20,659 nucleotides of DNA from a virus. Lineage: Duplodnaviria; Heunggongvirae; Uroviricota; Caudoviricetes. The stretch lies in the IMG/VR virus record IMGVR_UViG_2778261527_000010, positions 1 through 20,659 of that record. The stretch is one strand, 5' to 3'. Below the pieces are notes generated by a model. That model was not told the DNA's origin, made no database searches, and worked only from the letters and a program-made list of their open reading frames with translations. Below are positions 1 to 20,413 of this stretch, one piece after another. The translations under genes were made by a program, and so were the position numbers. Each line of letters starts with the position of its first letter. Position 1 is the stretch's first letter.

Positions 1-19
1 ATGGTGCTCATAAATCTGG

Positions 20-25
20 TATACT
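20..25 (+). promoter_or_regulatory. putative -10 hexamer (tatact) of the ssrA promoter; -35 lies outside the window
   Basis: TATACT-like hexamer about 14 nt upstream of the tmRNA 5' end; position only, no -35 visible. Confidence 0.3.
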
Positions 26-39
26 TACCTTTACACATT

Positions 40-402
40 GGGGCTGATTCTGGATTCGACGGGATTTGCGAAACCCAAGGTGCATGCCGAGGGGCGGTTG
101 GCCTCGTAAAAAGCCGCAAAAAATAGTCGCAAACGACGAAAACTACGCTTTAGCAGCTTAATAACCTGCTTAGAGCCCTCTCTCCCTAGCCTCCGCTCTT
201 AGGACGGGGATCAAGAGAGGTCAAACCCAAAAGAGATCGCGTGGAAGCCCTGCCTGGGGTTGAAGCGTTAAAACTTAATCAGGCTAGTTTGTTAGTGGCG
301 TGTCCGTCCGCAGCTGGCAAGCGAATGTAAAGACTGACTAAGCATGTAGTACCGAGGATGTAGGAATTTCGGACGCGGGTTCAACTCCCGCCAGCTCCAC
401 CA
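40..402 (+). ncRNA. ssrA: tmRNA (SsrA), 363 nt
   Basis: Sequence ggggctgattctggattcgacggg...ccagctccacca matches E. coli tmRNA as I recall it; tag reading frame gcaaacgacgaaaactacgctttagcagcttaa (ANDENYALAA*) present; 3' CCA end at 400-402. Confidence 0.95.
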
Positions 403-403
403 A
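358..403 (+). repeat. attL core: 46-bp direct repeat covering the 3' end of ssrA
   Basis: atgtaggaatttcggacgcgggttcaactcccgccagctccaccaa repeated at 16279-16324 with one mismatch (g378 vs a16299). Confidence 0.85.
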
Positions 404-412
404 ATAAATCAA

Positions 413-444
413 GGGGTTACGTGAAAGCGTAGCCCTTTTTTCTT
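413..444 (+). terminator. rho-independent terminator just downstream of ssrA
   Basis: Stem ggggttacg / cgtagccc (one wobble) with loop tgaaag, followed by tttttcttt. Confidence 0.55.
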
Positions 445-510
445 TGGTAGTGGCGGCAAAACGGCGGCAGGCATTCAGTCAAGCCCAGTTGCTACTACAT
501 GCGATCGCAA

Positions 511-1284
511 TTACAACTTAAAGAGTTTCGCTTGCTCTGGATTAACAGCTTCGACGTAGTTTTTGACCCCTATTCTGTGCGGCTCATAATTGCTTGAATA
601 GAAATCAATCAGGAAGTCACTCATTTTCTGAGATGTGACTTTCATAACTCCCTTACTCAAAGTTAAATTAAACACGCTAATCTTTGACGATGGTGCCTGA
701 GTTTTACTCATGTTGGCTTGATAACCAGATTTACGCATTGCCACTAGTGCTTCGTCGTAAGCCGCTTGTAATTGGGCCAAATCGTTTGACGAGATGATCA
801 CATCATCCATAAACACACTTAGCTTGAGATCATGATGTTTGTTCAATCGGCGTAGTAAGCTACCAAAATAACTTTTATCTAAGCAGAGGGTTGCAAGTAT
901 TGGAGATTGAACAAAACCAAAAGGGAGGACATGCTTATGTGGACTATGGGACAAGTTTCTTACAGTTGAAAATGTTGAGATTTCCCGCGCTTGAGAATAG
1001 GTGAAGTAGCTCTTTAGATCACGGGTGATACGACTACGGCTCGTTGACTGAAAAAATTGTTTAATATCAACAACGGCAAAAAAATCACTTTTTAAGTGTA
1101 ATCTGGCAGCTTTAAGATGCCCACCAGTTCTTAGATGGTAAAAATAGAGTGGCGGAATCCACTTGTTTCTGACAGCCTGAAGTATCTTCCCTCCGACTTT
1201 ACGTGCCTCAACGCTTGGGACATAAACCCAAACCCCGGGCTTAATCTCAAATTTATCTTCCCACCTTTGAACTTCTATTGTCAT
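511..1284 (-). CDS. compact reverse transcriptase (257 aa), palm/finger domains only
   Basis: RT motifs in canonical order: motif A FFAVVDIKQFF, motif B' LPFGFVQSPILATL, motif C SVFMDDVII (F-x-D-D), K-T-containing domain 6; no thumb or effector extension; AT-richer than phage core. Confidence 0.8.
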   Translation of the reverse strand: MTIEVQRWEDKFEIKPGVWVYVPSVEARKVGGKILQAVRNKWIPPLYFYHLRTGGHLKAARLHLKSDFFAVVDIKQFFQSTSRSRITRDLKSYFTYSQAREISTFSTVRNLSHSPHKHVLPFGFVQSPILATLCLDKSYFGSLLRRLNKHHDLKLSVFMDDVIISSNDLAQLQAAYDEALVAMRKSGYQANMSKTQAPSSKISVFNLTLSKGVMKVTSQKMSDFLIDFYSSNYEPHRIGVKNYVEAVNPEQAKLFKL

Positions 1285-1441
1285 GAGTTAAATTGTTGTA
1301 GTTGAAGGCCATGTTAAGAACGGCGTAAACCGCACCAACTAAGCCAACAAACGCGGTTGCGCATTTGAGCATAGCGGTGATCAGTTCAACACGCGCCTTA
1401 ACTAAGCCAAGTTCGTTTGTATCCATAACTTGTTCCTCCAT
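1253..1441 (-). CDS. small predicted single-pass membrane protein (62 aa from ATG 1441; 57 aa from ATG 1426), 3' end overlaps the RT start by 32 nt
   Basis: Hydrophobic segment LITAMLKCATAFVGLVGAVYAVLNMAF; GGAGGA 7 nt upstream of the second ATG (1426); overlap suggests translational coupling with the RT. Confidence 0.5.
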   Translation of the reverse strand: MEEQVMDTNELGLVKARVELITAMLKCATAFVGLVGAVYAVLNMAFNYNNLTHDNRSSKVGR

Positions 1442-1687
1442 AGATACCTGACGTCTCTTAGCGCAAGCGCATGGCCCTAACTAAATAAAAAATAACAACC
1501 AGTTAGCCCAGAAAGCTTAACAAGTCGGCGTCCAATTACATGGCAATCAGGTAATCGGTCCGCAGTCGCAAAGCGACAAACTACATATCTACGGAGTGGG
1601 GATAAATCCCCGCTAACGTCAGGCATTGTTAATTTAACCTCAACTTATAGAAAAGTATAGTTTTAAATCATGTAGTTATGTCGCCAT
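1442..1687 (-). ncRNA. candidate structured noncoding RNA / leader upstream of the RT module (hypothetical, retron msr-msd-like)
   Basis: No ORF; perfect hairpins ggggataaatcccc (1598-1611), gtcgcaaagcgac (1565-1577), gcgcaagcgc (1461-1470); 8-bp inverted repeat cctgacgt/acgtcagg (1616-1623 vs 1447-1454) with TAGC + G-rich hairpin right after the upstream arm on the minus strand. Confidence 0.25.
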
Positions 1688-1906
1688 TTAAATCGGCAAA
1701 CCCACCTGTTTAAATTTATGAGGATGCGGCTGAACCGGATTTGACTCTTTTGGCGTTGCAATCGAACGAACAAAAGTTTCATGGGTAACAAAAGTATGGC
1801 TGCAGTTAATGTTCTGGCACTGGTTGTAACGCTCTTTGGTCAATGAAGATACCTGAAAACTGCTGCGAGTATGGGCGGCACTTCCACACAGTGGGCAAAT
1901 CATCAT
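1688..1906 (-). CDS. ogr: Ogr/Delta-family zinc-finger late-gene transcription activator (72 aa)
   Basis: MMICPLCGSAAHTRSS...YNQCQNINCSHTF with C-x2-C...C-x4-C spacing as in P2 Ogr; GGGGAGA RBS 9 nt before ATG at 1906; lies immediately after gene D as in P2. Confidence 0.85.
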   Translation of the reverse strand: MMICPLCGSAAHTRSSFQVSSLTKERYNQCQNINCSHTFVTHETFVRSIATPKESNPVQPHPHKFKQVGLPI

Positions 1907-1996
1907 TTTTCGAGTTCTCCCCATTTTTGCTAAATGCACAATAATGATATCGCATTATTCCATTTTTCAAACTTAAAAGTTCTCCATTGTGAAGAA

Positions 1997-3097
1997 TCAT
2001 TCCATTTCGAGATCATCAACCTTCACTTCAAGCTCAAGACTGGTCGTAAAACCGTTATCCGGGCTGACGGTATGTGTCAGGGTGGTAATGGTCCATTCCG
2101 CATCATCTATCGGCTGTTTAAAGCCACTGACTTTCACTGGCATTTCCGTGTAGAGATCTGCCCGCCCTTCCGCCAGTTGTAGCGAGAATGCCGCAACACC
2201 GCGTTGCAGACGTTCCCACTGCATTTTCGCCGCTCGTTCGGCGTTGCTCCGGTTGGCATAAGTGCGATTAAGTACCAGCACGTTTTCATCCGTACCCACC
2301 AGGTAATCGCCCTGCTTCGCTTCCGGCTCTTTCTTCTGCTTCTTAGTCCTGCGCTTACGCTTCACCATGGTGCTTTCTTTCTTCGCGGGTTCGCGGGTAT
2401 GCAACCAGCTGGCAATTACGCCCGTATAGGCTCCGCGATCTGCCAGGGTAAAGCGGTGACTGTCGCCGTCCTTACGCGTGATAGTGATCACCGGCAGTGG
2501 TTTACCGCTGGCGCTTTTGCCCTGTCCCTGCCGGATGAATAACAGATTGCCATTTTTCACCGACGCAATAGCACCGTACTGGCGCGCCAGCCGCATCAAA
2601 AAACTACCGTCACTCTCATTAGTCTGGTCTATATGCTCCACGGGCTTATCCGACAGGTCTTTACCCAGTGCCATCTTCAGCTTGTGACGTACGGCTATTT
2701 CCTTCACCACTTCCCCGACAGTGGTCTTGTGCCACGATTTTTCGCGGCGGGTATTCAGCGTTTCCCGAAAATCAGCACTTCGCGCCCGGATAGTCAGGCG
2801 GTCCGGTGCGCCAGTGTGTTCAATCTCGTCCACCGTGAATGCCCCTTTCGGGAAAAGCGGCTGCCCCTTCCACCCCAGCGCCAGCGTAATGACCGCACCA
2901 CGGCGCGGCAGCACTATTTTTCCGTCGGCGTCGTCCAGCTCCAGATCAAGCTGGTCTGCTTCAAAGCCCCGATTGTCCGTCAGCGTCAGACTCATCAGGC
3001 GGTTATCCAGCACAGTGGTGATATCCTTCCCCTCAATACTGATGCTGAATGCGGGAGTTTTGTTTCCTTTGTTAAGCAGTTCAGAGCTGAAATTCAC
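1997..3097 (-). CDS. D: P2 gpD-like tail protein (late control gene D)
   Basis: 366-aa translation matches gpD along its length (LTLTDNRGFEADQLDLEL, TIRARSADFRETLNTRRE, VKVSGFK, NGFTTSLELEV); ATGA overlap with the upstream U gene. Confidence 0.9.
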   Translation of the reverse strand: MNFSSELLNKGNKTPAFSISIEGKDITTVLDNRLMSLTLTDNRGFEADQLDLELDDADGKIVLPRRGAVITLALGWKGQPLFPKGAFTVDEIEHTGAPDRLTIRARSADFRETLNTRREKSWHKTTVGEVVKEIAVRHKLKMALGKDLSDKPVEHIDQTNESDGSFLMRLARQYGAIASVKNGNLLFIRQGQGKSASGKPLPVITITRKDGDSHRFTLADRGAYTGVIASWLHTREPAKKESTMVKRKRRTKKQKKEPEAKQGDYLVGTDENVLVLNRTYANRSNAERAAKMQWERLQRGVAAFSLQLAEGRADLYTEMPVKVSGFKQPIDDAEWTITTLTHTVSPDNGFTTSLELEVKVDDLEME

Positions 3098-3579
3098 GAC
3101 AGCAGCCCTCCCACCGTTTTACTGATATCGCTTAAGGCAGACGTTGTCGTATCCTGCAAATTATTCAGCTGCGCACTGAGATCACCGAACATATCGGACA
3201 GGGATTCATCCACCCGTTTGAGCGACAGGGTGAACTCAATCCGGCGCGGCATACCATCGCGGAAAAACTCCGTTTTAGTCTGATTCAGTCCCTCAATCAC
3301 ATACATGCCGTAAATCGTGCCGCTGCCTTCAATCAGGGGCCATGCTTTTCCCTGTTCTGCCATCTGCTCCAGAGCCAGCAACGACAGCCTGCCGCCCGTT
3401 ATCTCCGGCATAAGAACACCAGAAAGCGTCAGCATGTCGTTGTCTGGTCCCAGAAACTGCGTGGACGGACGTCGATTGACCCGGCTGTTTGCCGCATGTC
3501 GCCAGCTGCGTTGATACTGCAGTTCCTGATACGGCACAGTGCGCAGCATAAACACGTACAATCCCAGCACCATCATCAT
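3094..3579 (-). CDS. U: P2 gpU-like tail protein
   Basis: 161 aa, MMMVLGLYVFMLRTVPYQELQYQRSWRHA... matches gpU; overlapping start/stop with T fragment and D. Confidence 0.85.
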   Translation of the reverse strand: MMMVLGLYVFMLRTVPYQELQYQRSWRHAANSRVNRRPSTQFLGPDNDMLTLSGVLMPEITGGRLSLLALEQMAEQGKAWPLIEGSGTIYGMYVIEGLNQTKTEFFRDGMPRRIEFTLSLKRVDESLSDMFGDLSAQLNNLQDTTTSALSDISKTVGGLLS

Positions 3580-3995
3580 GCTTCGTATCCCCCCTGATCG
3601 CTGTAGTTACTCCTGGCTTTTGCCTTCAGCCTGCGTTCACGTTCATCAAGCTGGCGGGCCACCTCCCGCGCAATATCCTGCGCACTTTGTCCTGGCTGCG
3701 TCTGAATGATGATCTGCATCGGTGCCTCAATCCGTTGAACGGGCGGCACAGTGGCTGCACGACTCACCATCGCTTCGCCGCCTTTCGCGGGAAGTGCCAA
3801 AGAATGCAACGGTGGAAGCTCTGCAGGCGCGGCAGCAACGCCCATCATTCCGGCAACAACGGCAGCCAGTGCAGCTGTATTTCTCCGGCTGGTCACATTT
3901 GCCGGGCCGTTAACAATTTCCGGCCCGTTTTCACCGACGATGCCAAACTGCCCGCGCGGGATATAGCCGCCGCTGTCATACATCCCCGCAAAGCC
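3576..3995 (-). pseudogene. T: 3' fragment (~135 codons) of tail tape-measure gene (gpT-like); 5' part deleted
   Basis: C-terminal tape-measure-like sequence (GYGFAGMYDSGGYIPRGQFGIVGENGPE...) ending in-frame before U; reading frame runs into unrelated portal-gene sequence at ~3984-4003. Confidence 0.7.
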
Positions 3996-4003
3996 ATATC
4001 CCC

Positions 4004-4399
4004 ATGACCGATGCTGCGCAGAACCAGGAGGATGTGAACAACCTCCGCAATGCGATGAAAAGCGCCAAAGGTCCTGGTAACTTCCGTAACCTGTTTATGT
4101 ACTCGCCTAACGGTAAAAAGGACGGGCTTCAGATTATCCCGTTGTCAGAAGTGGCGGCGAAGGATGAGTTCCTGAATATCAAGAACGTGAGCCGGGACGA
4201 CATGATGGCGGCGCATCGTGTGCCGCCACAAATGATGGGGATAATGCCTAATAATGTCGGGGGGTTTGGGGATATCGAAAAGGCAAGCACAGTATTTGTA
4301 CGAAATGAGCTACTGCCTCTACAAAAAATGTTTCTAGAAATAAATAATTGGTTAAACGATAGAATTATAAATTTTTCAACCTACGAACTAAAAATTTAA
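4004..4399 (+). pseudogene. Q: 3' fragment of portal gene (gpQ-like); 5' part deleted
   Basis: Translation ...FRNLFMYSPNGKKDGLQIIPLSEVAAKDEFLNIKNVSRDDMMAAHRVPPQMMGIMPNNVGGFGDIEKA... resembles P2-family portal C-terminus; opposite strand to tail genes as in P2; last ~25 codons are AT-rich. Confidence 0.6.
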
Positions 4400-4415
4400 T
4401 TAAGATAATTTAGTC

Positions 4416-4433
4416 GGCCTCATTTCTGAGGCC
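4416..4433. terminator. bidirectional hairpin between convergent portal fragment and lmuB-like gene
   Basis: Perfect stem ggcctca / tgaggcc with 4-nt loop, flanked by A/T-rich sequence. Confidence 0.45.
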
Positions 4434-4439
4434 ATATTT

Positions 4440-6098
4440 TCATCTTGAAAGTATCACCCGTTCAAACAATGGCATTAATTGAGAATAAACATTATCATAA
4501 TGTTCATCATTTAAAAGATGATATTTATTTTCAAGTTTGATGCTATTAAAACCATCCATGAAACTCTCATAACCAACAGTTCCAATAATAATCTGATTTG
4601 TAAGGGAAAACCCATCCAAGCATAGTTTTATAAGCTTATGCGTATGCTCTGGATCCAAATCTTGTTGCTTTGGAGAGTCTATTACTATAGGCATATTCTC
4701 AACTGAAGAGTTGCTTTTCATAACACTAAGCAGCGCGTAGTGAAATGCAAATATACCTCGAGGACCTCGACTACCAGTCTTACCCTTAGTAATATTATTA
4801 TAACTACTAAGGCCACCTACCTTTGTATTTTCGACACCAAGCTCTTTAAGAGCTTTAGCGAAATACTCTTTGAAACAGTCATTTATTTTAACAGTTCTTT
4901 TCTTATCATTGTATACTTCTAATTCTTCTTGTAATTCTGTCAACTCGCCTTCTTTTCGACCAATCTCAACGAATAACTCATCTAACTGTGAAATAAAAGT
5001 AGATTCAATTTCATGGTATGCGGCAGATTTAATAACATCATGAAGCGTTATTTCCGATTGAGTTTCTAAAATCAGCGCCTGCAACGCCTCTGAAGCAGCC
5101 CTTGACTCTTCTAGCTTTTGATTCAATTTAGGAATATTTTCCTCAATCTTGCTTTTCTCATCTGCAAGAACAGCAATGTTTTTGAGCATTTCATCTCTAT
5201 GGTTTATATAATTATATTCATTTACTGAATAAGCAACATTATCATCTCGAAAATTCGAAATCTCAAATTCATTATCAATAATCGCAGTTATCTCTTTGAG
5301 TTCACTCTCAAGGAAATTCTTCCTAGAATATAACCTCAAAAGATTCAATCTATATTCTGTCTGAACTAAATTTAAATTAGAATATTCATTTAATATACGT
5401 TCCAACTTTGATTTATAAAAATCCAAATCAACATCAAATAAAACCACGCCAAAAGATTCATCAATCTTACTTTTGCTTCTTTTTAGAACCTTAACAAAAC
5501 CATCTAACTCTGAAATTTTAACTTTAATTTCTTTGATTTTCCCTTGAACTGTATAATATTCCTTTGGCTTAATTCCAGAGTGATAGTAAAGAATGTTTTT
5601 TTGCCATTCTGAGTACATACTCATGTTTTCGAAAGAATTTATCACCGCTTTCCATCCTTCATCCTGATCAATAAAGAATGGGGCAAACAAACAAGCAGGG
5701 TTTGCCTGAGTCGTAGCACCCGTATATTTATTATGTAATTCCAGTTTAAAACCAAATATATTTGAAACACGAGATGCTAATGACGAAATCGTGTTATACA
5801 CGACTAGATCATCATTCTTCAAATCAAAGACACCAATAATCTTTTTATAACGCAAAAAAATAAAATCATTTTCCCCGTTATTAATTTCCACCAGTGTAAC
5901 TATATCATCTGATTTCCAAGCATCATCAAGCCTTAAATCTCCACCTAATGTGTAATAAAGACTTTTAATCAGGCTTGATTTACCAACATCATTTGTACCA
6001 TATATGAAGTTAACCCCTTCTGAAAACTCATAAGAAAAAGCTTTTCTGTCTCTTAATGAGAGTATTTTTATATTTTTAAATTTAACGTTATTCTTCAT
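4440..6098 (-). CDS. SMC-like ABC ATPase, LmuB-like (DUF3732-type) component of a Lamassu-like defence system
   Basis: N-terminal Walker A GTNDVGKSS, long coiled-coil middle (E/K/L-rich), C-terminal IVIDSPKQQ resembling the D-Q-P Walker-B variant of LmuB; GAGGA RBS before ATG 6098; 11-nt overlap with upstream gene; AT-rich. Confidence 0.6.
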   Translation of the reverse strand: MKNNVKFKNIKILSLRDRKAFSYEFSEGVNFIYGTNDVGKSSLIKSLYYTLGGDLRLDDAWKSDDIVTLVEINNGENDFIFLRYKKIIGVFDLKNDDLVVYNTISSLASRVSNIFGFKLELHNKYTGATTQANPACLFAPFFIDQDEGWKAVINSFENMSMYSEWQKNILYYHSGIKPKEYYTVQGKIKEIKVKISELDGFVKVLKRSKSKIDESFGVVLFDVDLDFYKSKLERILNEYSNLNLVQTEYRLNLLRLYSRKNFLESELKEITAIIDNEFEISNFRDDNVAYSVNEYNYINHRDEMLKNIAVLADEKSKIEENIPKLNQKLEESRAASEALQALILETQSEITLHDVIKSAAYHEIESTFISQLDELFVEIGRKEGELTELQEELEVYNDKKRTVKINDCFKEYFAKALKELGVENTKVGGLSSYNNITKGKTGSRGPRGIFAFHYALLSVMKSNSSVENMPIVIDSPKQQDLDPEHTHKLIKLCLDGFSLTNQIIIGTVGYESFMDGFNSIKLENKYHLLNDEHYDNVYSQLMPLFERVILSR

Positions 6099-7167
6099 AA
6101 GAAACATCCTCAAAAGTCAACTTTATAATTGCATATATAGCAATCATAAATTTCTCTTCTTGATTTAATAAAGAGAAATCCCCGTCCCCCGCTGCAATTG
6201 TTTTTTCGAGTGTAAAGAAGAGGTCTCGAACAGGTATCTCACGATAATGCTCTATACTCTTTAGAGCCGATTGAAATTCCAGAAAATAAAGATAGTATAT
6301 TGAATTGACATTGAGCACTTTTATTGATATGCGTGTAAAAACTGATTGTAATTTAATCCCCTCATAAGGATCTGAGAAAGTACCAAGCAACATACAAACC
6401 TGTTCCCATTTTGGCGTTATTTTTATGCTTGCAATGAGTCCAGATAATAAATCAGTTACAAATTCTGAAGATATACCTTTCTTTAGTACTAAATCTTCAA
6501 AAGTTTTGATATCACTAGAAGCAACACTAACCTTCTCATTACACTTATTGATTAATAATTTAGTGAATGCTGTTGAATTAATACCATGATCATCCCCAAA
6601 GTAAGAATTCAAAAAAACTGCAACTTTCCCGTATAAATGTGAGTTAGGATCTAACAAACTAAGATCAGATGTTTTAAATTTTATTTTATCAAGAGGAACT
6701 TCTTTTTTAGTATTTAGCTGCTCTTGAACCTTACTAATTATAATTTCCTTATGCTCATTATTAAGATCACTACCTTTTTCGTTATTATCATTTAAGAAAT
6801 CGAATCCAGCATTCGATAACAGAACCATATAAATTTCGTGACCAACGAATTGATAGAAATGGTCATATAGTTTTGCAACAAATGATTTAGGTTTAGCTTT
6901 TGTTGCGTTCACTATTGCTGCGAGTGTCCATTTACCATCTTTTTTTGTTTTAACTTGGATAAACTCAGCACTAGTCGGAGAAACAGATGAATTCAATACA
7001 AGAATATCGTCATGATATTCAAATAGAAATAAATATTTCTCCTTTTCTTTTTGTTTCTCAAGTAAATAATTTATCCCCCAAGAGGCTTGATATGAAAAGC
7101 CTCTCAACGCGTTTTCACCGCCCCGTTCGGCTTGATTTACTGTAATTAACGCATCTGATAACGCCAC
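6088..7167 (-). CDS. LmuA-like effector with N-terminal Cap4/DUF4297-type PD-(D/E)xK-like nuclease region
   Basis: N-terminus GFSYQASWGINYLLE...EYHDDILVLN...FIQVKTKK resembles the DUF4297 D...QxK core; GTG start, in-frame stop two codons upstream; AT-rich; sits at the P2 old/tin position. Confidence 0.5.
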   Translation of the reverse strand: MALSDALITVNQAERGGENALRGFSYQASWGINYLLEKQKEKEKYLFLFEYHDDILVLNSSVSPTSAEFIQVKTKKDGKWTLAAIVNATKAKPKSFVAKLYDHFYQFVGHEIYMVLLSNAGFDFLNDNNEKGSDLNNEHKEIIISKVQEQLNTKKEVPLDKIKFKTSDLSLLDPNSHLYGKVAVFLNSYFGDDHGINSTAFTKLLINKCNEKVSVASSDIKTFEDLVLKKGISSEFVTDLLSGLIASIKITPKWEQVCMLLGTFSDPYEGIKLQSVFTRISIKVLNVNSIYYLYFLEFQSALKSIEHYREIPVRDLFFTLEKTIAAGDGDFSLLNQEEKFMIAIYAIIKLTFEDVSYEE

Positions 7168-7310
7168 TCTATATATCCCTATTGTACTGCTTTTTTTTGA
7201 TACAAATTACCTTAGCTTCACCATCAAGTCCACAGATTCATGGCTAAGCGCGCGCTCGTATCCCCGCCACGCCTGCCCGCTTTATGTAGTGGTTTTCATG
7301 CACCTGCATG

Positions 7311-7342
7311 ATCTACGCAAAAGCCCACCAGTTCTGGCGGGC
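7311..7342 (-). terminator. rho-independent terminator after the tum/DinI-like operon
   Basis: Minus-strand stem gcccgccag / ctggtgggc (one mismatch) followed by ttttgcg. Confidence 0.45.
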
Positions 7343-7477
7343 CTTAGCAAAAACGATCCTCAAACGATCATGCGATCTCATGCGGCATAGACATGCACTA
7401 CAGAGCTAACGCCTCGCAAGGGCTCGTTGTTCAACCTTGCTGACGCCAGAAACAAGTTCAGACGCCAGCAACGTTTC

Positions 7478-7711
7478 TTAATGCAGCCAGCTGTCGTCTT
7501 CCCACACCTTCTGCATAATTTTCATCACTTGCTTCCTTTCTTCGTCCAGTTGCAGTCCGGTCAGTTCCACACCGTTAGAGCTACCTTTGCGGATACGAAT
7601 TACCGTTTTGGGATACAGGGGGTGCAGATTACGGTAAAGCTCGGATTCAAGGGCGTCCAGGGTCGACTGGCTAATCTTCTGCTCTTTATCGATCATTATT
7701 TCAATGCGCAT
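7478..7711 (-). CDS. DinI-family protein (186 Tum C-terminal-domain-like)
   Basis: MRIEIMIDK...LDALESEL...IRIRKGSSNGVELTGL...KQVMKIMQKVWEDDSW parallels E. coli DinI; AGGTGA RBS 6 nt before ATG 7711. Confidence 0.75.
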   Translation of the reverse strand: MRIEIMIDKEQKISQSTLDALESELYRNLHPLYPKTVIRIRKGSSNGVELTGLQLDEERKQVMKIMQKVWEDDSWLH

Positions 7712-7721
7712 AAAAGTCACC

Positions 7722-7910
7722 TCAGCTGATGACATCCATTGAGCGGTTGTATTCGTGGCTTCTGATTTTTGCCATGAGTTCATCAGTCAATTCAGAAACC
7801 CACTGCAGAGCCAGTCCCTTCTCTTCATCACTACACTCACTGGCCGCTACAAGCTTAAGAAAAAAATCAATGCGCTGGAGCTTCAAAGACTCCAAAAAAT
7901 AGTCCTGCAT
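7722..7910 (-). CDS. small protein (62 aa), first gene of the LexA-controlled operon; possibly the N-terminal part of a split tum
   Basis: AGGAGG RBS 4 nt before ATG 7910; ends 10 nt before the DinI-like start; a frame open upstream of the DinI start overlaps it. Confidence 0.5.
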   Translation of the reverse strand: MQDYFLESLKLQRIDFFLKLVAASECSDEEKGLALQWVSELTDELMAKIRSHEYNRSMDVIS

Positions 7911-7951
7911 CTTTCCTCCTATGACACCACACGCAATACTGTATGTATAAC

Positions 7952-7971
7952 CACTGTTTATAATTACAGTA
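7952..7971. promoter_or_regulatory. LexA (SOS) box upstream of the tum-like operon
   Basis: cACTGTttataattACAGta: perfect CTGT-N8-ACAG with AT-rich spacer; a second half-match (tactgtatgtataacc) lies adjacent at 7937-7953. Confidence 0.7.
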
Positions 7972-8063
7972 TATAATAATATTACTGATGTAAAACGTTT
8001 TTTTACGTTTATCAGCCTGATATGCCTGGTATTATTAAGAGCACGAATGGTTAACCATCGTAA

Positions 8064-10478
8064 TTAATACAGGTTTCGCCACTTATCATCTTCCTGCAAA
8101 CGCTGGTTCCGATAGAAGATACGCAGGCCTGCTCCTGACGGAATACTGCCGCCGCGAAGGAGTAAATCGACCTCTTTCTCGCTACCATCAAACCCTCTGG
8201 ACTTCAGCTCATACTCGAGCTGCTGTCGCTGATGGTCTGTAATTCGCTGTTTGTAGTCTTTACGCCGTTTCGGTTTAACCAGGTGTAACCTTGCTGCCAG
8301 TTCCCGGCGTTCTTTTTTGCTCATACTGTGCAGGTAATCGTGCAACTCCTTGTCATCCATGCGGGTGATATCCGTTCTGGTATCCCCATCAGCTGATTTG
8401 TCTTTCCCTTGTTGGTTCAAATTTTCAGCAAGGGGACAGTTATTGCCACGAGTCCAAGGGGCGCAAGCGCCCTGGTCGGCTGCCGCCTCCTGAACGTCAA
8501 CGGCTTTACGAACCATTTTCCACTTCACTGCATGAGTGCAGATCTTGCCCTCTGCAATGGGTGACCAGATGCCATAAATACGAATGCCGTGATCGCCATA
8601 GGCGGTCGGCTCTTCGTTGATTTCATAAGCGGTTCTGATGAGGTGATATTTACGGGGAACCAGTACGCCGCCCTGCTTCATGATGTAGGTGGCAAAACAA
8701 CCAGCATCAGCAGCAGCCAGGATGGCATCAAGGCGCGGGTTATCCAGTACCGGCGCACCTGCTTTTTTGTCCCCCTGTTGCCTTGCCGCCTGACCAGCCA
8801 GCAATCGCAGTTCACGGTAAGCCTGACGCCCCGGAATGCCAAAGAAGCGGAATTGCTGAACACGATGCAAAGACGCCCAGGCATTCACGTATTCAGCGTT
8901 ATCACGCAGAGATTTACCCGTTTCCTTGCTGATCTCGCCAGCCAGACCACGCCCGTCAATGTTCTTACTGATGTATTTCGCTATGTAGCTTGTCGGCGTT
9001 CCTTTGCGCGGGTTAATCAGCTCAGACTTAAAGCGCGGCCCCGTGTTATTGCCCAGCTCCTCGCGGTCTTCACGGATAGCAAACTTACGCAACAATGCAG
9101 TAATGGCTCGGCGGTCTTTTTTGCGCATGAAACACAACAGGTGCCAGTGAACTGTGCCGTCGTGATGCGGCTCAGCCACCCGCACGCCATACCAGCGCAA
9201 CCCGGCTTTGTGCATCGCCTTACGAAATGCAGCAAACATACCGACCAGATAATCGCTGCTTTGTCTTACCGTCGCATTTGTCCAGGTCGGGTTGGGCCTG
9301 CCGTTATTTAGCGTGGAATGGAAACGTGACGGACAGGTGATGGTGTAGAAAACGGCGCAGTCACCGCGCATTTCCGCGATAAGCTCCAGACCTTTAACAC
9401 AGGCCATCATCTCATTGCGGCGATGCGCAGGGTTGCTGCTGCTGGCGTTTACCACATCCTCCATGTCCAGCGTGTCGCCGTCTTCGTTCACCAGTTCATG
9501 AGAACGGAAAAACTCCAGCGACTTACGGCGCTGCTCACGTTTATGCAACACGGCTTCATAGCTGACATAGGGAGATGCTTTTTTGCTGACAAGGCAGACA
9601 GCACGCAACTGCTCTTCCCGCCATTCGCAACGCATCTTCCATAATTTCCGATACCACCAGTCGGCGCACAACATACGCGCCAGCGAACCCGGAATGAGTT
9701 CATAGGGCACGGGTTTACGGCGGTTTCTTTTCCGACGGAGTTGCTCAAACGCAGGCGGGATGACATCCAGACGCAGGGTTTCCGCTGCCACCCTTTCCCA
9801 TGTCTTGCGGATTTCTTCTGGCTTAACGTCATCGGTGGCATACAAATCGCCACAAGCGGCATCAAGGCACATACTCATATGCGCAGCTACCAGGGTGGAC
9901 AGGCGTTTCACCTGATCCTGACTCATTTCAGGCAGGATCAGCAGGCCGTCCAGCCCTTCATGGCTTGCCATAAAGCGAAAAGATGCAGATAGCTGACTGT
10001 CGCGTACATGCTCCAGTCGTTCCAGACATGGCTTAATCGTCTCACGTAAATAGCGGGAATAAGCCTTTGGCCTGCCCAGGCTGCTGAAGTATTCAATACG
10101 TTGCATCAGCGGCTTGCTGATATGGGAAGGCTGGGCGTTGACGTCCGCCAGAATGACCATATCCGGATTAAAACACTGCTGCTCATGCGCCAGCTTTGCC
10201 CGACTAATGAGCTTATCCTGTTCCATTTCGCGCTGGACAGGATCACGGGATTCATTAAAGAAATAACGCTCCCAGACCTGATCACTCAGCGCCTCACGGC
10301 GCAGCTGTTCCTGCTCGTTATCGGCAGCGTACAGAGTGATCAGGTTTGAAAGCGTAGAAACCGGCGCAACTTCCGCCGGGTCCAGATAAGGGTTAATGGC
10401 CTTTTTCGGGCTGTTCCATGAGAACGATGCGGCAGCTTCGTTAAAGCCGCAGCAGTTGTTCATATCGGCATGACTCAT
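8064..10478 (-). CDS. A: P2 gpA-like rolling-circle replication initiator endonuclease (804 aa)
   Basis: Active-site tyrosine motif [13 protein letters not shown] and metal-binding [15 protein letters not shown] as in P2 A; ATGA overlap with upstream dam-like gene. Confidence 0.9.
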
Positions 10479-11332
10479 GCACGTACTCCGTACACGGCAG
10501 AACTATCCACGCCACGCGAATAATCAAATCCCACCCAGCAGCGCGGCCCAGAAACAGCAATGATTTCTGTTGCTGATTTACCCTCGCCAGCTGCCACACC
10601 GATGCTGCGTTTTGCCTTGATGTAGTGGTGAGTAAAATTGCGATACAGCGAACGGATCAGGGATGTGTCACTGTTAGAAACAATGACCGGATGTCCTTCT
10701 GATGACCGATGTTCAAGAACAGATGCCAGGTGATACTGGTCATCTTCAGTGAAGCCGTCAGTGTGATAGCCGGAAAACGTACCGTCATACGGCGGATCGC
10801 AATACACCACATCCCCCGCCTTCAACATCGCCAGCGTTTCATCAAAGCTGGCGCAGATAAACGTTGCTCGCTGGGCCTTTTCTGCAAATGCGCGAATTTC
10901 TTTTTCAGGGAAATACGGATTTTTATAATTACCGTAGGGAATGTTGAAATGCCCGCTCTTGTTATAGCGACATAAACCACGGTAACCGTGACGATTGAGA
11001 TACAGGAAATATACCGCTTTCATGAAATCAGTAATTTCAGTTGAGTAATTAAACTCCTGCCTTATGTTGTAATAAGCCACCTCCCTGTTTGCGATCTCAA
11101 ATAAAACTCTGGCGCGAGATATAAACGATTCACAATCAGCGGCAACCTTTTTATAGAGGTTGATTAAATCAGGATTAATATCCGCAACCAGATAGCTGGG
11201 ATAATCCGTCTCCATCATCACAGCACAGGAACCCGCGAAAGGTTCAACCAGTCGCGGGCCAGCAGGAAGATGTTTTTTCAGTTCGGACATTATGGCAGTT
11301 TTATTTCCCGCCCATTTCAGGATGGTGCTCAT
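10475..11332 (-). CDS. Dam-like N6-adenine DNA methyltransferase (285 aa)
   Basis: ILKWAGNK and [10 protein letters not shown] (AdoMet-binding), DPPY catalytic motif; GGAGGT RBS 5 nt before ATG 11332; ATGA overlaps with both neighbours. Confidence 0.8.
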
Positions 11333-11556
11333 ACAGCACCTCCGTTGTAATGTTTGCCTTTCAGCTCTGCGATTTCCTGACAGGTAATGCAAAGCTGCAC
11401 ACCCGGAATGGCACGGCGGCGTGCTGGCGGAATTGGCGCTTCACACTCAATGCAAAGCACGCGTGACACGCCCGGTGTTTTGGCACGGGCTGCACGGATA
11501 TGGCGCTGGCGTTCTTCTTCAACGCGCTGCTGTACGAGATCCATTGCATCAGCCAT
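11329..11556 (-). CDS. TraR/DksA-family C4 zinc-finger protein
   Basis: C-x2-C...C-x2-C (CIECEAPIPPARRRAIPGVQLCITCQ); start overlaps stop of upstream ORF (TAATG). Confidence 0.7.
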   Translation of the reverse strand: MADAMDLVQQRVEEERQRHIRAARAKTPGVSRVLCIECEAPIPPARRRAIPGVQLCITCQEIAELKGKHYNGGAV

Positions 11557-11789
11557 TAGTGGATCTCCTGCGCTTCGTTCTGGATTGCTTCAGCAGTCAC
11601 ACGCAGCAGTTCTGCTGCTTCGACGTGGTTTAGCTGGCAGATTGTGATATGACACGCTAGGCTATCAAGGCGGGCAGCCATTGCCTCAGCCCTTGCCCGG
11701 CGTTCTTCCAGACGAGCCTCTGTCAGTAAAATATTAAGCCCTGCGTCATCCGGTCTGGTTTTGGTCGAGAGGGTTTCAATATTACGCAT
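11556..11789 (-). CDS. hypothetical phage early protein (77 aa)
   Basis: AGGAGA RBS 7 nt upstream of ATG 11789; coupled to the TraR-like gene. Confidence 0.45.
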   Translation of the reverse strand: MRNIETLSTKTRPDDAGLNILLTEARLEERRARAEAMAARLDSLACHITICQLNHVEAAELLRVTAEAIQNEAQEIH

Positions 11790-11856
11790 AATCAATTCTC
11801 CTGAATTTAGATAAAGGGATGCACGGCGGGTTTACGCCATTAATTTCATTAGTTGC

Positions 11857-12198
11857 TTAATTCGGCATGGTTAGCCGTCTGGGAAATAAGCTCACCACTG
11901 CACGAAAATGATTCATTGCTTTAATCAACTCCCGCTTTTCGTCAGTGGTCAGCTCATTAATGCTGATGCTATGACGTTCAGCTGGAATTTTTGCCATAAA
12001 GAATATGGCAGCCAGTGCCCGTTTATTTTGTTCATTATTGATATCCCGTGGATCACGCATATCTTTAATAAACCGCTCAAGCTCTGACTCAATATTCAAA
12101 CCAAAAACTTTCGCCCTTAACTCCGCAATATGATTAAGTCCATTCAGGCGTTCACCGGGTCTTAATGGAACAGTCGCCGCAGCGCCTTCAATAGCCAT
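11857..12198 (-). CDS. hypothetical phage early protein (113 aa)
   Basis: GGGGGA RBS 6 nt before ATG 12198; in the 186 fil/dhr-equivalent position. Confidence 0.5.
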   Translation of the reverse strand: MAIEGAAATVPLRPGERLNGLNHIAELRAKVFGLNIESELERFIKDMRDPRDINNEQNKRALAAIFFMAKIPAERHSISINELTTDEKRELIKAMNHFRAVVSLFPRRLTMPN

Positions 12199-12362
12199 TT
12201 GTTCCCCCGTTTTTTCGTAGATAGTTCTGCCAGCAATTCATCTTGTGAACGGCACGGATGCCAGCGTTTACCATCCTCACCCATGATCCAGCCGTGACCG
12301 TAGTGCATTGCCGGACTTTGTTTTACCAGCAGCGATGCAAATGATGGTTCTTTCGTCAGCAT
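12162..12362 (-). CDS. hypothetical small protein (66 aa)
   Basis: AGGTG RBS before ATG 12362; 37-nt overlap with the downstream gene. Confidence 0.35.
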   Translation of the reverse strand: MLTKEPSFASLLVKQSPAMHYGHGWIMGEDGKRWHPCRSQDELLAELSTKKRGNKWLLKALRRLFH

Positions 12363-12369
12363 AAGCACC

Positions 12370-12879
12370 TCACAGCAAACCGAATGAAGCACCGAGGCCA
12401 GTTACAGTATCAACTGCACTTGCCATCGCAGGATTAACCTGTAAACGGGCCTGCAATGAAACAGCAGCTAACGCCATCAGTCGTGTAACAGAGTTAATGC
12501 TGCTGATAGCATCACGACGACCTGCACTGGTTTTTACATCGCCAGATACCGCACCTGCAGCAACACGCCCGATCTCTGCGGTTGCACTCATGACGTAATG
12601 TGGCAGTTTCTCTTTTGCCACCTCATTAATCGGTACACATGGCAGGCAGTGAATCTGTGCCAGAAAACCGTCTACCAGCGTTGAATCTTCCGTCAGATCG
12701 GTAAGTAGCCAGATATCTGGCGCATTGAGCTGATGCGGTTGATCTGGGTTGAGTTTGTTTCGCAGAGTCTGGACATTCATTCCTGCACGTTCTGCCAGCT
12801 TCGCCATATTGTGACGAAGTGCAAAAGCTCTACAGGCTTCATCAAAATGCGGGTGTTTGGAAATCTTATAATCAAACAT
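12370..12879 (-). CDS. cII: phage 186 CII-like transcriptional activator (169 aa)
   Basis: MFDYKISKHPHFDEACRAFALRHNMAKLAERAGMNVQTLRNKLNPDQPHQ... HTH protein matching 186 CII in length and sequence as I recall it. Confidence 0.85.
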   Translation of the reverse strand: MFDYKISKHPHFDEACRAFALRHNMAKLAERAGMNVQTLRNKLNPDQPHQLNAPDIWLLTDLTEDSTLVDGFLAQIHCLPCVPINEVAKEKLPHYVMSATAEIGRVAAGAVSGDVKTSAGRRDAISSINSVTRLMALAAVSLQARLQVNPAMASAVDTVTGLGASFGLL

Positions 12880-12911
12880 GCTACCCCCTTAGAAAGTTCT
12901 CATAATTGAAC

Positions 12912-13154
12912 TTACTTACCAACAATGACGCGGAAGTTGGAATGACCGAGGGATTCACGGACCTGATCGGTTTTGTACATTAAATAACGCAGGCTTACGC
13001 GGCCTTTGTTTTTTTCTTTCTTGACCATGTATTTAGCAAGCTGACCATGGTGAATTTTTTGATACACAGAGCCGCGGGAGATACCTTCCCATTCCGCGAA
13101 CTCTGCAGGCGTAGCCATCTCTTTTGGTACACGAATTGAAATATCAGTGCTCAT
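12912..13154 (-). CDS. apl: Apl/Cox-like small HTH excisionase/regulator (80 aa)
   Basis: First gene of the lytic operon, divergent from cI; HTH-like EFAEWEGISRGSVYQKIHHGQL; GGGAGA RBS. Confidence 0.6.
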   Translation of the reverse strand: MSTDISIRVPKEMATPAEFAEWEGISRGSVYQKIHHGQLAKYMVKKEKNKGRVSLRYLMYKTDQVRESLGHSNFRVIVGK

Positions 13155-13210
13155 AGTGCAGTATCTCCCGATTAAGGTTTGGTTTACGTCGTTTTATCTC
13201 GTTTTACTTG

Positions 13211-13259
13211 ATTCAATATTTGATACATCGAGATACTACGATCCAATATTTGATACGTC
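13211..13259. repeat. two direct repeats (caatatttgatac, 13214-13226 and 13244-13256; 17/19 identity when extended) in the immunity switch region; candidate operator sites
   Basis: Identical 13-mers 30 bp apart; one lies between -35 and -10 of the lytic promoter, the other just downstream of its predicted start. Confidence 0.45.
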
Positions 13260-13261
13260 AA
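13233..13261 (-). promoter_or_regulatory. pR-like lytic promoter for apl-cII operon
   Basis: Minus strand TTGACG-17 nt-TAGTAT; correctly placed upstream of apl. Confidence 0.55.
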
Positions 13262-13273
13262 CAGGATTAAAAA

Positions 13274-13906
13274 ATGATACAGGTAAAGGTTGGAGAGAAT
13301 ACAGGGGGAAGAGAGGCTATCCATAGACTAATGGCAGCCTATGATTTCAAGTCCAGACAGCAACTTTGCGATCACTTAGGCGCATCAAAAAGCACCATGG
13401 CAAACAGATACTTAAGAGATAGTTTTCCTGCAGAGTGGGTGATTCAGTGCGCCTTGGAAACAGGAGTTTCTTTATTGTGGCTAACCACCGGACAGGGGGA
13501 GCCAGGTCCAAACATTGAACCTAAAAAAAATATCAATTCCGTGAACTCCAGCAAGGTTGTACCTCTTTCTGAACTAGTATCTCCTGAAATTGACAAGGCG
13601 ACTCTCAACGGTGGTTTATTGGTCGATGCTGGAAAAGCAATCATTGATAGCAGCATACTCCCCTCAGACTCAAGCAACCTACTGCTGGTGACTACTTCTG
13701 GTGATTCTTATTTAATAGATCGCAACCAAACACCACCAGTAAATGGTATGTGGTTAGTCGATATCGACGGGATAAAAAGCATCGTTAAATTGACTCGACT
13801 CCCGGGAAACAAATTAGTAGTGCATCAGGATGATTCATCGTTTGAGTGCGGTCTGGATGACATTGAGGTAGTAGGCCGCGCACTGAAAATCATTAAGAGC
13901 CTTTGA
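13274..13906 (+). CDS. cI: CI-like immunity repressor (210 aa)
   Basis: N-terminal HTH (SRQQLCDHLGASKSTMANRYLR); divergent from apl; immediately upstream of int as in 186. Confidence 0.75.
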   Translation: MIQVKVGENTGGREAIHRLMAAYDFKSRQQLCDHLGASKSTMANRYLRDSFPAEWVIQCALETGVSLLWLTTGQGEPGPNIEPKKNINSVNSSKVVPLSELVSPEIDKATLNGGLLVDAGKAIIDSSILPSDSSNLLLVTTSGDSYLIDRNQTPPVNGMWLVDIDGIKSIVKLTRLPGNKLVVHQDDSSFECGLDDIEVVGRALKIIKSL

Positions 13907-13907
13907 T

Positions 13908-14924
13908 ATGACCATCAGAAAACAGCCGAACGGAAAATGGTTGTGTGAGTGCTATCCCAATGGACGCAATGGCAAGCGCGTGCGTAAGCAATTTGCCACG
14001 AAAGGCGAAGCCATTGCGTTTGAAAGCTTCACAATGGAAGAAGTGAATAAAAAACCGTGGTTGGGTGAAAAGGATGATCGGCGACGCCTATCAGAATTAA
14101 TTGAGCTTTGGTATTCCCTGTATGGTCAGACACTCGCAGACCCCAAGCGCCTCATGGCGAAACTTAGAATTATCTGTAATGGCCTAGGCGACCCCATCGC
14201 CTCAGAACTGACAGCCGGAGACTTTACGAAATACCGCGAAGCACGGTTAAAAGGTGAAATACGAAATGAAGATGGCACGCTTATGTCGCCCGTTAAGCCC
14301 CGCACGGTAAACCTTGAACAACGCAATCTATCATCGGTGTTCGGTACATTAAAAAAACTAGGACACTGGTCAGCACCAAACCCGCTGGCAGGACTTCCGA
14401 CCTTCAAAATTGCCGAAGGTGAGCTGGCTTTTCTTTCCACGGACGAAATCAAGCGCCTGTTGGCGGCATGTGCTGAATCTCAAAGCCCTAGCTTACTAAT
14501 GATTGCAAAAATATGCCTAGCTACTGGCGCACGGTGGAGTGAAGCAGAAAATTTGCAGGGCCATCAGTTATCCAAATACCGCATCACTTATACCAAGACG
14601 AAGGGCAAGAAAAACCGTACCGTGCCAATATCTCAGGATCTGTACAACGAACTTCCTAAAAATCGAGGGAAGTTATTCTCACCATGCAGAAAAGCCTTTG
14701 AGCGTGCAGTAAAGCGGGCCGATATTGAGCTTCCTGAGGGTCAATGCACCCATGTATTACGTCATACATTCGCCAGCCATTTTATGATGAACGGAGGAAA
14801 CATACTTGTGCTTAAAGAAATTTTAGGCCATGCCGATATAAAAATGACCATGATTTATGCGCACTTTTCTCCAGATCATCTGGAGGATGCGGTAACTAAA
14901 AATCCTTTAAACTATATAGAGTGA
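13908..14924 (+). CDS. int: tyrosine integrase, P2/186 family (338 aa)
   Basis: Catalytic-region motifs ATGARWSEA, HVLRHTFASHF, LGHADIKMTMIYAHF; adjacent to attR. Confidence 0.9.
   Translation: MTIRKQPNGKWLCECYPNGRNGKRVRKQFATKGEAIAFESFTMEEVNKKPWLGEKDDRRRLSELIELWYSLYGQTLADPKRLMAKLRIICNGLGDPIASELTAGDFTKYREARLKGEIRNEDGTLMSPVKPRTVNLEQRNLSSVFGTLKKLGHWSAPNPLAGLPTFKIAEGELAFLSTDEIKRLLAACAESQSPSLLMIAKICLATGARWSEAENLQGHQLSKYRITYTKTKGKKNRTVPISQDLYNELPKNRGKLFSPCRKAFERAVKRADIELPEGQCTHVLRHTFASHFMMNGGNILVLKEILGHADIKMTMIYAHFSPDHLEDAVTKNPLNYIE

Positions 14925-19594: not shown

Positions 19595-20413
<819 letters not shown>

Follow-up and report, generated by a model that had tools for sequence, protein, structure and literature searches.

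Does a short AT-rich stretch at one end of a decayed prophage encode a reverse transcriptase (RT) system of its own, and if so, of which kind? The locus occupies positions 511–1687 of a 20,659-nt stretch of viral DNA (Caudoviricetes; positions 1 to 20,659 of IMG/VR record IMGVR_UViG_2778261527_000010), which is hereafter called the window. An earlier note on its sequence had proposed a compact RT, a small membrane protein and a hairpin-rich leader that together form an RT-based module of no named type. We show that a structured non-coding RNA (ncRNA), a small protein (SP) and the RT are conserved as a trio that has no further conserved partner. The best reading of the data is that the module represents a new retron-like type, set apart by profile scores, motifs and gene content rather than by tree placement. 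The module and its boundaries are as follows:

40–402, plus strand: ssrA (tmRNA gene; Rfam RF00023, 295.8 bits, E=4.9e-122; annotated as ssrA in E. coli H2)
403–475, no strand: att-proximal prophage end and left cargo boundary, common to P2-like prophages without the module
511–1284, minus strand: reverse transcriptase, 257 amino acids (Pfam RVT_1, E=1.9e-21, residues 49–200)
1253–1426, minus strand: small protein SP, 57 amino acids from the ATG at 1426 (62 from 1441), conserved in 75 of 88 loci
1434–1439, minus strand: Shine-Dalgarno sequence (SD) of SP, GGAGGA, identified by sequence, inside the pairing stretch 1446–1435, UAUCUAUGGAGG
1444–1627, minus strand: retron-like ncRNA, arm to arm (fold z-score, covariation, covariance model)
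1632–1637, minus strand: −10-like hexamer TTAAAT, putative promoter of the ncRNA-SP-RT transcript, about 5–7 nt upstream of the 5' arm
1688–1939, minus strand: ogr/Delta late-gene activator and right cargo boundary (Pfam Ogr_Delta, E=6.7e-22; PGAP annotation)

Read on the minus strand from ogr towards ssrA, a 245-nt stretch without a convincing open reading frame (ORF) is followed by the SP ORF and the RT ORF. The 3' end of ssrA is the integration site of a decayed P2/186-like prophage; ssrA itself is context and lies outside the module. Phage records that lack the module match the window at 403–475 only (query positions 1–73), so the cargo can be delimited to roughly 476–1687. Its location between ogr and att and its comparatively low GC content, about 40–45% versus 53–59% in the neighbouring phage late genes, agree with the earlier note. 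Of 5,426 complete E. coli genomes, 28 contain the same 1.3 kb at no less than 99.5% identity, as do 13 prophage records from Klebsiella; partial matches to the module query occur in 771 E. coli genomes, and only 28 cover at least 80% of it. The best explanation of the locus is a self-contained unit that a decayed P2-like prophage carries as a moron at its ogr/att end. Publicly, the RT and SP pair is named 'reverse transcriptase domain-containing protein' and 'hypothetical protein'.

The RT assignment stood up in full: besides the Pfam match, ORF 511–1284 contains all palm motifs that had been listed for it, namely FFAVVDIKQFF, LPFGFVQSPILATL and SVFMDDVII, and its catalytic F-M-D-D box comprises residues 158–161 (window 813–802). 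A word-indexed search yielded 72 relatives, nearly all of 244–270 amino acids, and phmmer over 1.84 billion representatives returned 159 clusters at 50% identity with E<=1e-30 and 320 with E<=1e-10, whose members measure about 245–275 and mostly about 250–265 amino acids. Scanning one genome per species, we collected 80 loci in alpha-, beta-, gamma- and zeta-proteobacteria, and in essentially all of them the RT ORF encodes 244–278 residues. An alignment of 44 family members has 23 invariant residues, among them D73, the D160-D161 pair and K194. The RT thus belongs to a family of its own that is common and widespread in Proteobacteria. NCBI/PGAP, UniRef and JGI give its members no name beyond 'reverse transcriptase domain-containing protein' or similar.

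Based on the 44-sequence alignment, AlphaFold predicted the RT with high confidence (pLDDT 95.6, pTM 0.90) as fingers, palm and a short C-terminal region of three helices (218–252). The earlier note had left no room for either a thumb or a maturase domain; the maturase domain is indeed absent, whereas the three C-terminal helices provide a short thumb. In a Foldseek search of the PDB, ranks 1–17 were all retron RTs (Ec86 at E=4e-15, Ec83 with a template modelling (TM) score of 0.76), which superpose on the model with TM scores of 0.68–0.76 over about 265 columns, and were followed by DRT9, G2L4 and group II intron RTs. Retron RTs were also the best matches in a PDB profile search with the family. 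Given the conserved length and motifs, the confident model and the Foldseek ranking, the RT as modelled is a complete, very compact enzyme of the retron fold.

The second component is SP. As had been stated, an ORF of 57 or 62 codons preceded by GGAGGA (1439–1434) overlaps the RT start by 32 nt, and no further ORF lies in between. PGAP calls the 57-residue form (WP_000380485.1, hypothetical protein), and the ATG at 1426, 7 nt downstream of GGAGGA, is likely the true start. In 75 of 88 loci the RT is accompanied by a small ORF on the same strand, which ends 4 to 98 nt beyond the start of the RT. These proteins share a basic N-terminus (median net charge +3 within the first 12 residues), one long helix and an (N/S)Y motif, N42-Y43 in the window copy. 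The tyrosine is invariant (75 of 75) and the asparagine present in at least 90%; the distance from the initiator methionine to the tyrosine has a median of 38 residues and is mostly 31–48, while the tail past it is variable and runs out of frame over the first RT codons. The tyrosine is encoded by 38 TAT and 32 TAC codons, and since these vary synonymously, selection on it acts at the protein level. We also considered whether NY is conserved because its codons mark the RT start at the nucleotide level; the synonymous tyrosine codons and the position of the RT start, which ranges from −5 to +31 nt, rule this out. In the alpha-proteobacterial clade (L051–L087, near position 3000) the RT start codon overlaps the invariant tyrosine codon of SP (AAC UAU G).

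The description of SP as a membrane protein holds for the window copy, which contains an uncharged, transmembrane-like stretch of 24 residues, but not for the family: uncharged runs of at least 19 residues occur in 7% of the SPs only, and the 20 residues before NY carry a median of three charges. Judged from these sequences, the family trait is an amphipathic helix and not a generic transmembrane protein. SP had no match in Pfam, PADLOC, NCBIfam or PDB sequence searches. In three independent cases, Klebsiella P0036, Serratia P0017 and P0205, SP and RT are fused in frame to proteins of 302–316 amino acids. The Klebsiella fusion P0036 is listed in 7,802 blocks of the assembly index; in Klebsiella pneumoniae (L001–L003, 4001–4909) it is flanked by umuDC on one side and a SRAP gene on the other, and one strain has a second RT, of 494 amino acids, next to it.

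Upstream of SP, the earlier note had pointed out an inverted repeat followed by TAGC and a stem-loop, an arrangement that we confirm; the arms of the repeat covary in 60 loci. The elements of this leader, all on the minus strand, are:

1626–1615, minus strand: 5' arm of the ncRNA, core CCTGACGT (sequence, covariation)
just 3' of the 5' arm, minus strand: U-A-G-C with G at 1613 (conserved triplet)
1611–1598, minus strand: hairpin SL1, GGGGATTTATCCCC (sequence)
1597–1585, minus strand: anti-SD element ACUCCGUAGAUAU, predicted pseudoknot partner of the SP ribosome-binding region (RNAduplex)
1577–1565, minus strand: hairpin SL2, GUCGC/GCGAC (covariation)
about 1563–1494, minus strand: two variable hairpins
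1484–1479, minus strand: UUAGUU
1470–1461, minus strand: small 3' hairpin, GCGC/GCGC
1455–1444, minus strand: 3' arm of the ncRNA (inverted repeat, covariation)

An upstream alignment of 70 loci reveals a fixed order of blocks: TTG, TAnnnT and, about 7 nt on, YCYGGCG-AUAGG (in the window GCCUGACGU-UAGC), then SL1, a GUCAC-NNN-GUGAY hairpin, variable hairpins, UUGGUU, a small hairpin, the 3' arm and the ribosome-binding site of SP. Across loci the ncRNA measures 128–197 nt from arm to arm. The TTAAAT hexamer of the window corresponds to the TAnnnT block, which is conserved at this spacing with the TTG block farther upstream, and we infer from sequence that it may be the promoter of the ncRNA-SP-RT transcript; a consensus promoter scan of the window did not call this hexamer.

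Several lines of evidence show that the ncRNA is under structural selection. The window RNA has a minimum free energy of −65.2 kcal/mol (z=−3.9), which none of 200 shuffles equalled. RNAalifold on 60 sequences recovered the terminal stem, in which 7 of the 8 pairs show compensatory changes. In the 60 homologous loci, 93.8% of the cells of this 8-bp closing stem are paired versus 73.9% after shuffling and 27–45% in slid registers; there are 133 doubly changed compensatory cells, and the covariation score of 0.715 (0.316 for the shuffled controls) was not reached by any of 500 shuffles. In a gamma/beta subset of 35 sequences the closing stem is 97% paired and SL2 96%, with AU-to-GC swaps in the enteric clade. 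Next to the 5' arm, A14 of the UAG triplet is invariant among the 60 sequences and U13 and G15 are each present in at least 90%; in the 35-sequence subset both A14 and G15 are invariant. By its layout, the stem with the adjacent G resembles the a2/a1 arrangement of retron msr-msd RNAs, with the G as a candidate branch point.

A covariance model, R1, was built from the 35-sequence subset. It has a single match in the window (1424–1627, minus strand, 79 bits) and one match directly upstream of SP/RT in each of 48 other loci, 49 in total, including loci on which it had not been trained, such as the Klebsiella fusion. Conservation of the partner ORF and of the leader, which had been put forward as a check on the module, is thus borne out by SP in 75 of 88 loci and by the model in 49. 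The gamma/beta model misses the RNAs of the alpha clade, which therefore needs a separate model; the small 3' hairpin of the alpha-proteobacterial ncRNAs has a different, covarying sequence. Rfam over window positions 1–2400 detected only the tmRNA, with no family for the ncRNA and no group II intron. The ncRNA also contains an ORF of 49 codons (window 1477–1626, minus strand), and gene callers may name such ORFs hypothetical proteins; these spurious leader ORFs share peptides (e.g. VMRFALGKPG, SLGYALALRIVRIV) only because the underlying RNA sequence is conserved.

Most of the ncRNAs carry, just 3' of SL1, a pyrimidine-rich segment complementary to the SD of SP and its flanks. In the window, ACUCCGUAGAUAU (1597–1585) is predicted by RNAduplex to pair with UAUCUAUGGAGG (1446–1435) over 11 bp at −16.4 kcal/mol. 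Such duplexes recur at the same relative position in each locus, and their flanks differ between clades yet stay complementary, e.g. CCUCAUC/GAUGAGG, CCCUCUAUUC/GAAUAGAGG, CCUCUCUGUAC/GUAUAGAGAG and CCCUUAUCAA/UUGAUAAGG. In a test limited to a 50-nt segment following the 5' arm and a 22-nt segment ahead of the start codon, with dissimilar non-cognate pairs as controls, cognate duplexes had a mean of −16.65 kcal/mol and the controls one of −13.96 kcal/mol (Wilcoxon p=5.7e-7). Testing the flanks from a rigid core anchor was uninformative, anchors being absent in most loci, and a duplex test over the whole interior was noisy. These comparisons support the anti-SD:SD helix without proving it; if formed, it would make a pseudoknot with the closing stem.

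The arrangement of the frames bears on how the RT is translated. Only 26 of 74 loci have an SD-like 4-mer of their own at the RT start. Most loci have the RT in frame +1 relative to SP and some in frame +2, and the fusions have it in frame 0; in the window, a TAA two codons upstream of the RT ATG closes the RT frame. This frame pattern and the upstream stop argue for translational coupling of RT to SP rather than for programmed frameshifting, which the mixed frames and the TAA rule out.

To which known RT system does this module belong? The best PADLOC match of the window RT is the retron profile RT_VI (E=5.7e-18, 63 bits), with Cas-associated RT, RT_I-B and RT_IX close behind. All 44 family members match every retron RT profile weakly, RT_I-B (2.4e-26) slightly ahead of RT_VI (1.9e-24). 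In NCBIfam, retron_St85_RT gave 50–59 bits against a cut-off of 235, which is far below member level. Among the profiles of defence-associated reverse transcriptases (DRTs), RT_UG33 scored best with 33.7 bits and Drt3a reached 17.6 bits against a cut-off of 200, while the Drt5 and Ec67 models were also far lower; the group II model TIGR04416 gave 23 bits against 300. No retron, DRT, abortive-infection (Abi), Cas-RT or group II profile in PADLOC or NCBIfam was therefore matched at member level, and tools based on the 2023 PADLOC and 2026 NCBIfam models, which do not recognise the RT, would miss the family. To this extent the claim of an unnamed type is upheld; it has to be qualified by a close functional analogue that the earlier note did not name, the Type VI retrons.

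Retron RTs are characterised by NAXXH between RT2 and RT3, with the histidine most conserved, and by VTG in RT7, with the glycine most conserved (PMC7736814). VTG is present in all 1,928 catalogued retron RTs and is said to direct the RT to the msr (PMC7736814). The window RT has A59-x-x-x-H63 at the place of NAXXH and V-F205-N206 at the place of VTG. In the family, the first region reads GGH-x-x-A-(A/L)-x-x-H and aligns with NATPH of Ec86, A59 and H63 being invariant and the asparagine replaced; the second reads x-V-F-N-I/L, aligned with K-V-T-G-L of Ec86, with F205 and N206 invariant in the 44 sequences. The VTG hallmark is not present, and the family is consequently not filed here under any catalogued retron type.

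The closest known system is the Type VI retrons (Retron-Vpa2, Retron-Eco12 and Retron-Sen3; clade 3 of Mestre et al. 2020). In Type VI the order is ncRNA, SP, a helix-turn-helix (HTH) protein and RT; the SP acts as the toxin, and the RNA locks its translation (10.1101/2025.10.22.683967; 10.64898/2026.04.27.721009). In Retron-Sen3 the HTH protein is the antitoxin of the SP toxin (10.1101/2025.10.22.683967; 10.64898/2026.04.27.721009). Like these retrons, the module is led by an ncRNA that is closed by terminal inverted repeats, with a small helical protein and then a small RT downstream, and it occurs in Proteobacteria on mobile elements; the SP ribosome-binding site, too, is sequestered by RNA in Type VI, as is predicted here. 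In contrast to Type VI, the HTH protein (Cro/C1, cluster 2_1, 91–110 amino acids) is not found in the module, where SP directly overlaps RT, and no small Cro/C1 HTH gene is conserved nearby across loci. Further differences are VFN in place of VTG, a score of only 63 bits with RT_VI and the existence of SP-RT fusions. The SP is also smaller, with about 38 residues up to the tyrosine versus 55–79 in Type VI, half the size of the cl2075 SPs. The SPs of Type VI retrons are grouped into clusters 2075, 2760, 3272 and 3897 and a Vpa2-like group.

Canonical retrons (Ec86/Eco1, Ec83, Ec78/Eco7, Eco8) have an RT whose fold matches the module RT over its whole length, and they share with the module A-x-x-H at the NAXXH site, an ncRNA immediately upstream, a covarying stem of the a1/a2 type, a G-containing triplet and carriage by prophages. 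The module RT is, however, 50–70 residues shorter, and where canonical retrons have a downstream nuclease, nucleoside deoxyribosyltransferase, ATPase or two-transmembrane protein as effector, the module has a mini-ORF between ncRNA and RT. Type I toxin-antitoxin loci of the hok/sok and tisB/istR type offer an analogy with SP in function only. Type I toxins are very small hydrophobic or amphipathic helical peptides with a basic N-terminus, and their SD is masked by pairing with an upstream segment of their own mRNA. Unlike in these loci, no antisense small RNA gene is evident in the module, the leader is retron-like and the coupled downstream gene encodes an RT. The Abi-P2, AbiK and UG-DRT enzymes are likewise RT-based cargo of P2-like prophages. 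In them as in the module, a conserved tyrosine could in principle prime synthesis. They differ in size (about 450–600 amino acids), in a C-terminal helical-repeat domain and in their use of other P2 hotspots, and the Abi-type members work without a template, whereas the module RT ends at residue 257 after its three-helix thumb. No direct repeats of at least 14 nt exist in window 380–2100, hence no pair of template and variable repeats. A diversity-generating retroelement, a group II intron and a UG/Abi system were thus rejected, given that neither such repeats nor a maturase domain nor a helical-repeat domain are present and SP has no Pfam match that would make it an Avd accessory protein. The searchable literature (accessions, compact and orphan retrons, 'type XIV retron') contained no description of an RT-SP-ncRNA family.

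The module probably serves abortive-infection defence. We give an even chance to a specific version of this idea: a retron-like unit for abortive infection whose RT copies part of the leader, with the resulting cDNA/RNA state controlling an SP masked by the anti-SD. A single transcript starting near 1627 would carry the ncRNA (about 180 nt), then SP and, coupled to SP in translation, the RT. In the resting state the anti-SD of the ncRNA would pair with the SP ribosome-binding site, keeping SP low and, through coupling, most of the RT low as well. Leader-bound RT could copy part of the leader into cDNA in the manner of retrons, from the junction at the closing stem. Infection would perturb the cDNA/RNA state and open the lock, possibly by accumulation of cDNA, by removal of the template by RNase H or by loss of control by host nucleases. 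SP would then accumulate and arrest or kill the cell, acting as a basic amphipathic helix (transmembrane-like in E. coli) that ends in an essential Asn-Tyr. We infer cDNA synthesis, the toxicity of SP, the trigger and the direction of control. The model may be seen as a parallel to the Type VI retron Vpa2 minus its HTH repressor or antitoxin.

A number of observations weigh against this model. The retron VTG triplet is absent from the RT family, and the hhalign comparison of the SP profile yielded a probability of only 0.8% with the cl2075 SPs and 0.1% with the Vpa2 SP (both taken from Table S3 of 10.64898/2026.04.27.721009). The module contains no antitoxin or repressor comparable to the Type VI HTH protein, and family-wide SP is too charged for a plain transmembrane toxin. 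The anti-SD helix exceeds non-cognate pairings in stability only modestly, and in a sequence-only MAFFT register just 73% and 53% of its cells are paired. As a lock on SP also limits the coupled RT, the model needs a basal leak or an SD-independent RT start. Finally, the natural SP-RT fusions would fit the role of an RT cofactor at least as well as that of a toxin.

The last point leads to a reading that we consider unlikely but the main rival, namely that SP is a subunit of the polymerase, either an RNA-binding N-terminal element or a primer that uses its Tyr-OH like a terminal protein, and that the output is cDNA or an unlinked effector. Selection of the invariant tyrosine at the protein level and its tight spacing from the initiator methionine would agree with such a role. 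So would the three fusions, which place SP at the N-terminus of the RT, and the combined length of the SP core and RT of about 300 residues, the size of ordinary retron RTs. With SP fused, the Foldseek alignment to Ec83 and type I-A RTs grows from 266–268 to 287–291 columns, and translational coupling suggests a fixed stoichiometry. Yet AlphaFold leaves the SP helix of a natural fusion undocked (pLDDT 47–66, linker <50; the alignment is shallow there), and the SP profile did not match the N-termini of retron RTs. Moreover, the RT core is just about 15–20 residues short at its N-terminus by a St85-type profile, and the layout of the ncRNA is of the retron type expected for 2'-OH priming from a conserved G.

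Somewhat less probable still is a sub-lineage of Type VI retrons that has no HTH protein and acts by the mechanism of Retron-Vpa2 or Retron-Sen3. The top PADLOC rank of RT_VI, the order of ncRNA, SP and RT with an SP ribosome-binding site predicted to be sequestered by RNA, and the small size of Type VI RTs as well (RT_VI profile length 279) are compatible with it, and the HTH protein is missing from about 22% of the catalogued Type VI entries (10.64898/2026.04.27.721009). Against this descent, the RT_VI score is only 63 bits and across the family no better than that of RT_I-B, VTG is replaced by an invariant VFN and SP has no detectable homology to the cl2075 or Vpa2 SPs. In addition, the SP-RT overlap leaves no room for an HTH gene, and none is conserved nearby.

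Improbable, though coherent, is a protein-priming variant in which SP is a terminal protein whose tyrosine hydroxyl would prime reverse transcription on a retron-like RNA, giving a protein-linked cDNA. AbiK/Abi-P2 and the hepadnaviral terminal protein are precedents for priming by a protein. The SP-RT fusions of Klebsiella, Serratia and the third lineage would be its single-chain form, and priming by the tyrosine, rather than by a branching G through its 2'-OH, would explain why the VTG/msr-recognition hallmark was lost.

That the RT is a decayed fragment of a larger retron, DRT, group II or diversity-generating RT beside a chance ORF and chance hairpins, as its unusually short ORF and its bare public annotation might suggest, is refuted for practical purposes by length and catalytic motifs conserved in hundreds of divergent homologues, a confident and complete model, a conserved SP and a conserved ncRNA with a covarying closing stem, the lack of template/variable repeats and group II and Drt scores far below their cut-offs.

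If the cloned locus makes cDNA and protects from phage, the retron-like unit proposed here would add a retron type whose RT, at about 250 amino acids, is the smallest of the retron kind in this analysis; the retron RT chains that the structure searches matched have 310–596. With a peptide of about 40 residues as sole partner and no protein antitoxin evident, it would be a very small system for coupling reverse transcription to the release of a toxin, and the predicted RNA lock on the ribosome-binding site of the effector is directly testable. The RT family is common, and for Klebsiella pneumoniae its fused form is listed in assemblies numbering in the thousands. An RT that is compact and self-templating and has a short, defined RNA partner is also of practical interest where retrons are used for DNA production and genome editing. 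Moreover, the ogr-att junction would be a further cargo site in P2-like prophages.

The wider distribution of the module bears on this last point. It lies beside a homologue of P2 gpD in Escherichia, Klebsiella (L008, Klebsiella michiganensis), Halomonas (L043) and Salinicola (L042), and this neighbourhood in distant hosts suggests that the D/ogr-att end is a recurrent P2 cargo site distinct from the two published hotspots. The gpD homologues of the Salinicola and Halomonas loci sit upstream of position 2700. Elsewhere, the module was found beside a type I restriction-modification system and an integrase in Endozoicomonas, at a junction of prophage and type VI secretion system in Dickeya and near another RT and umuDC in Klebsiella; other loci feature Mrr, Old, AriA, DrmD and mobilisation genes. 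A search for a conserved third gene across loci gave none beyond close relatives. These settings on mobile elements and in defence islands are consistent with an anti-phage role, of which they are no proof.

In the window, the P2/186-like prophage remnant spans about 14.5 kb (403–14924), of which mostly regulatory genes and defence cargo survive. The gene order is ogr, gpD, gpU, then cargo, gpA, Dam methylase, CII, CI and integrase. In the identical locus of E. coli H2, the tape-measure and portal genes are partial pseudogenes according to PGAP (L088, 6174–6997). Outside the prophage, an uncharacterised ORF of 411 amino acids at 14929–16164 had no match in Pfam or PADLOC. A low-GC block (27–36%) at window 4200–7200 encodes a Lamassu system, which adjoins the replication gene A (8064–10478), the classic P2 old/tin cargo hotspot; two further defence genes lie outside the prophage:

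4440–6113, minus strand: LmuB (PADLOC, 841 bits)
6088–7167, minus strand: LmuA with a Cap4-type nuclease domain (PADLOC, 475 bits)
17800–19275, minus strand: C5 cytosine methyltransferase, a defence-type gene outside the prophage
19640–20413: PD-T4-3 homologue with a GIY-YIG domain, outside the prophage (PADLOC, 463 bits)

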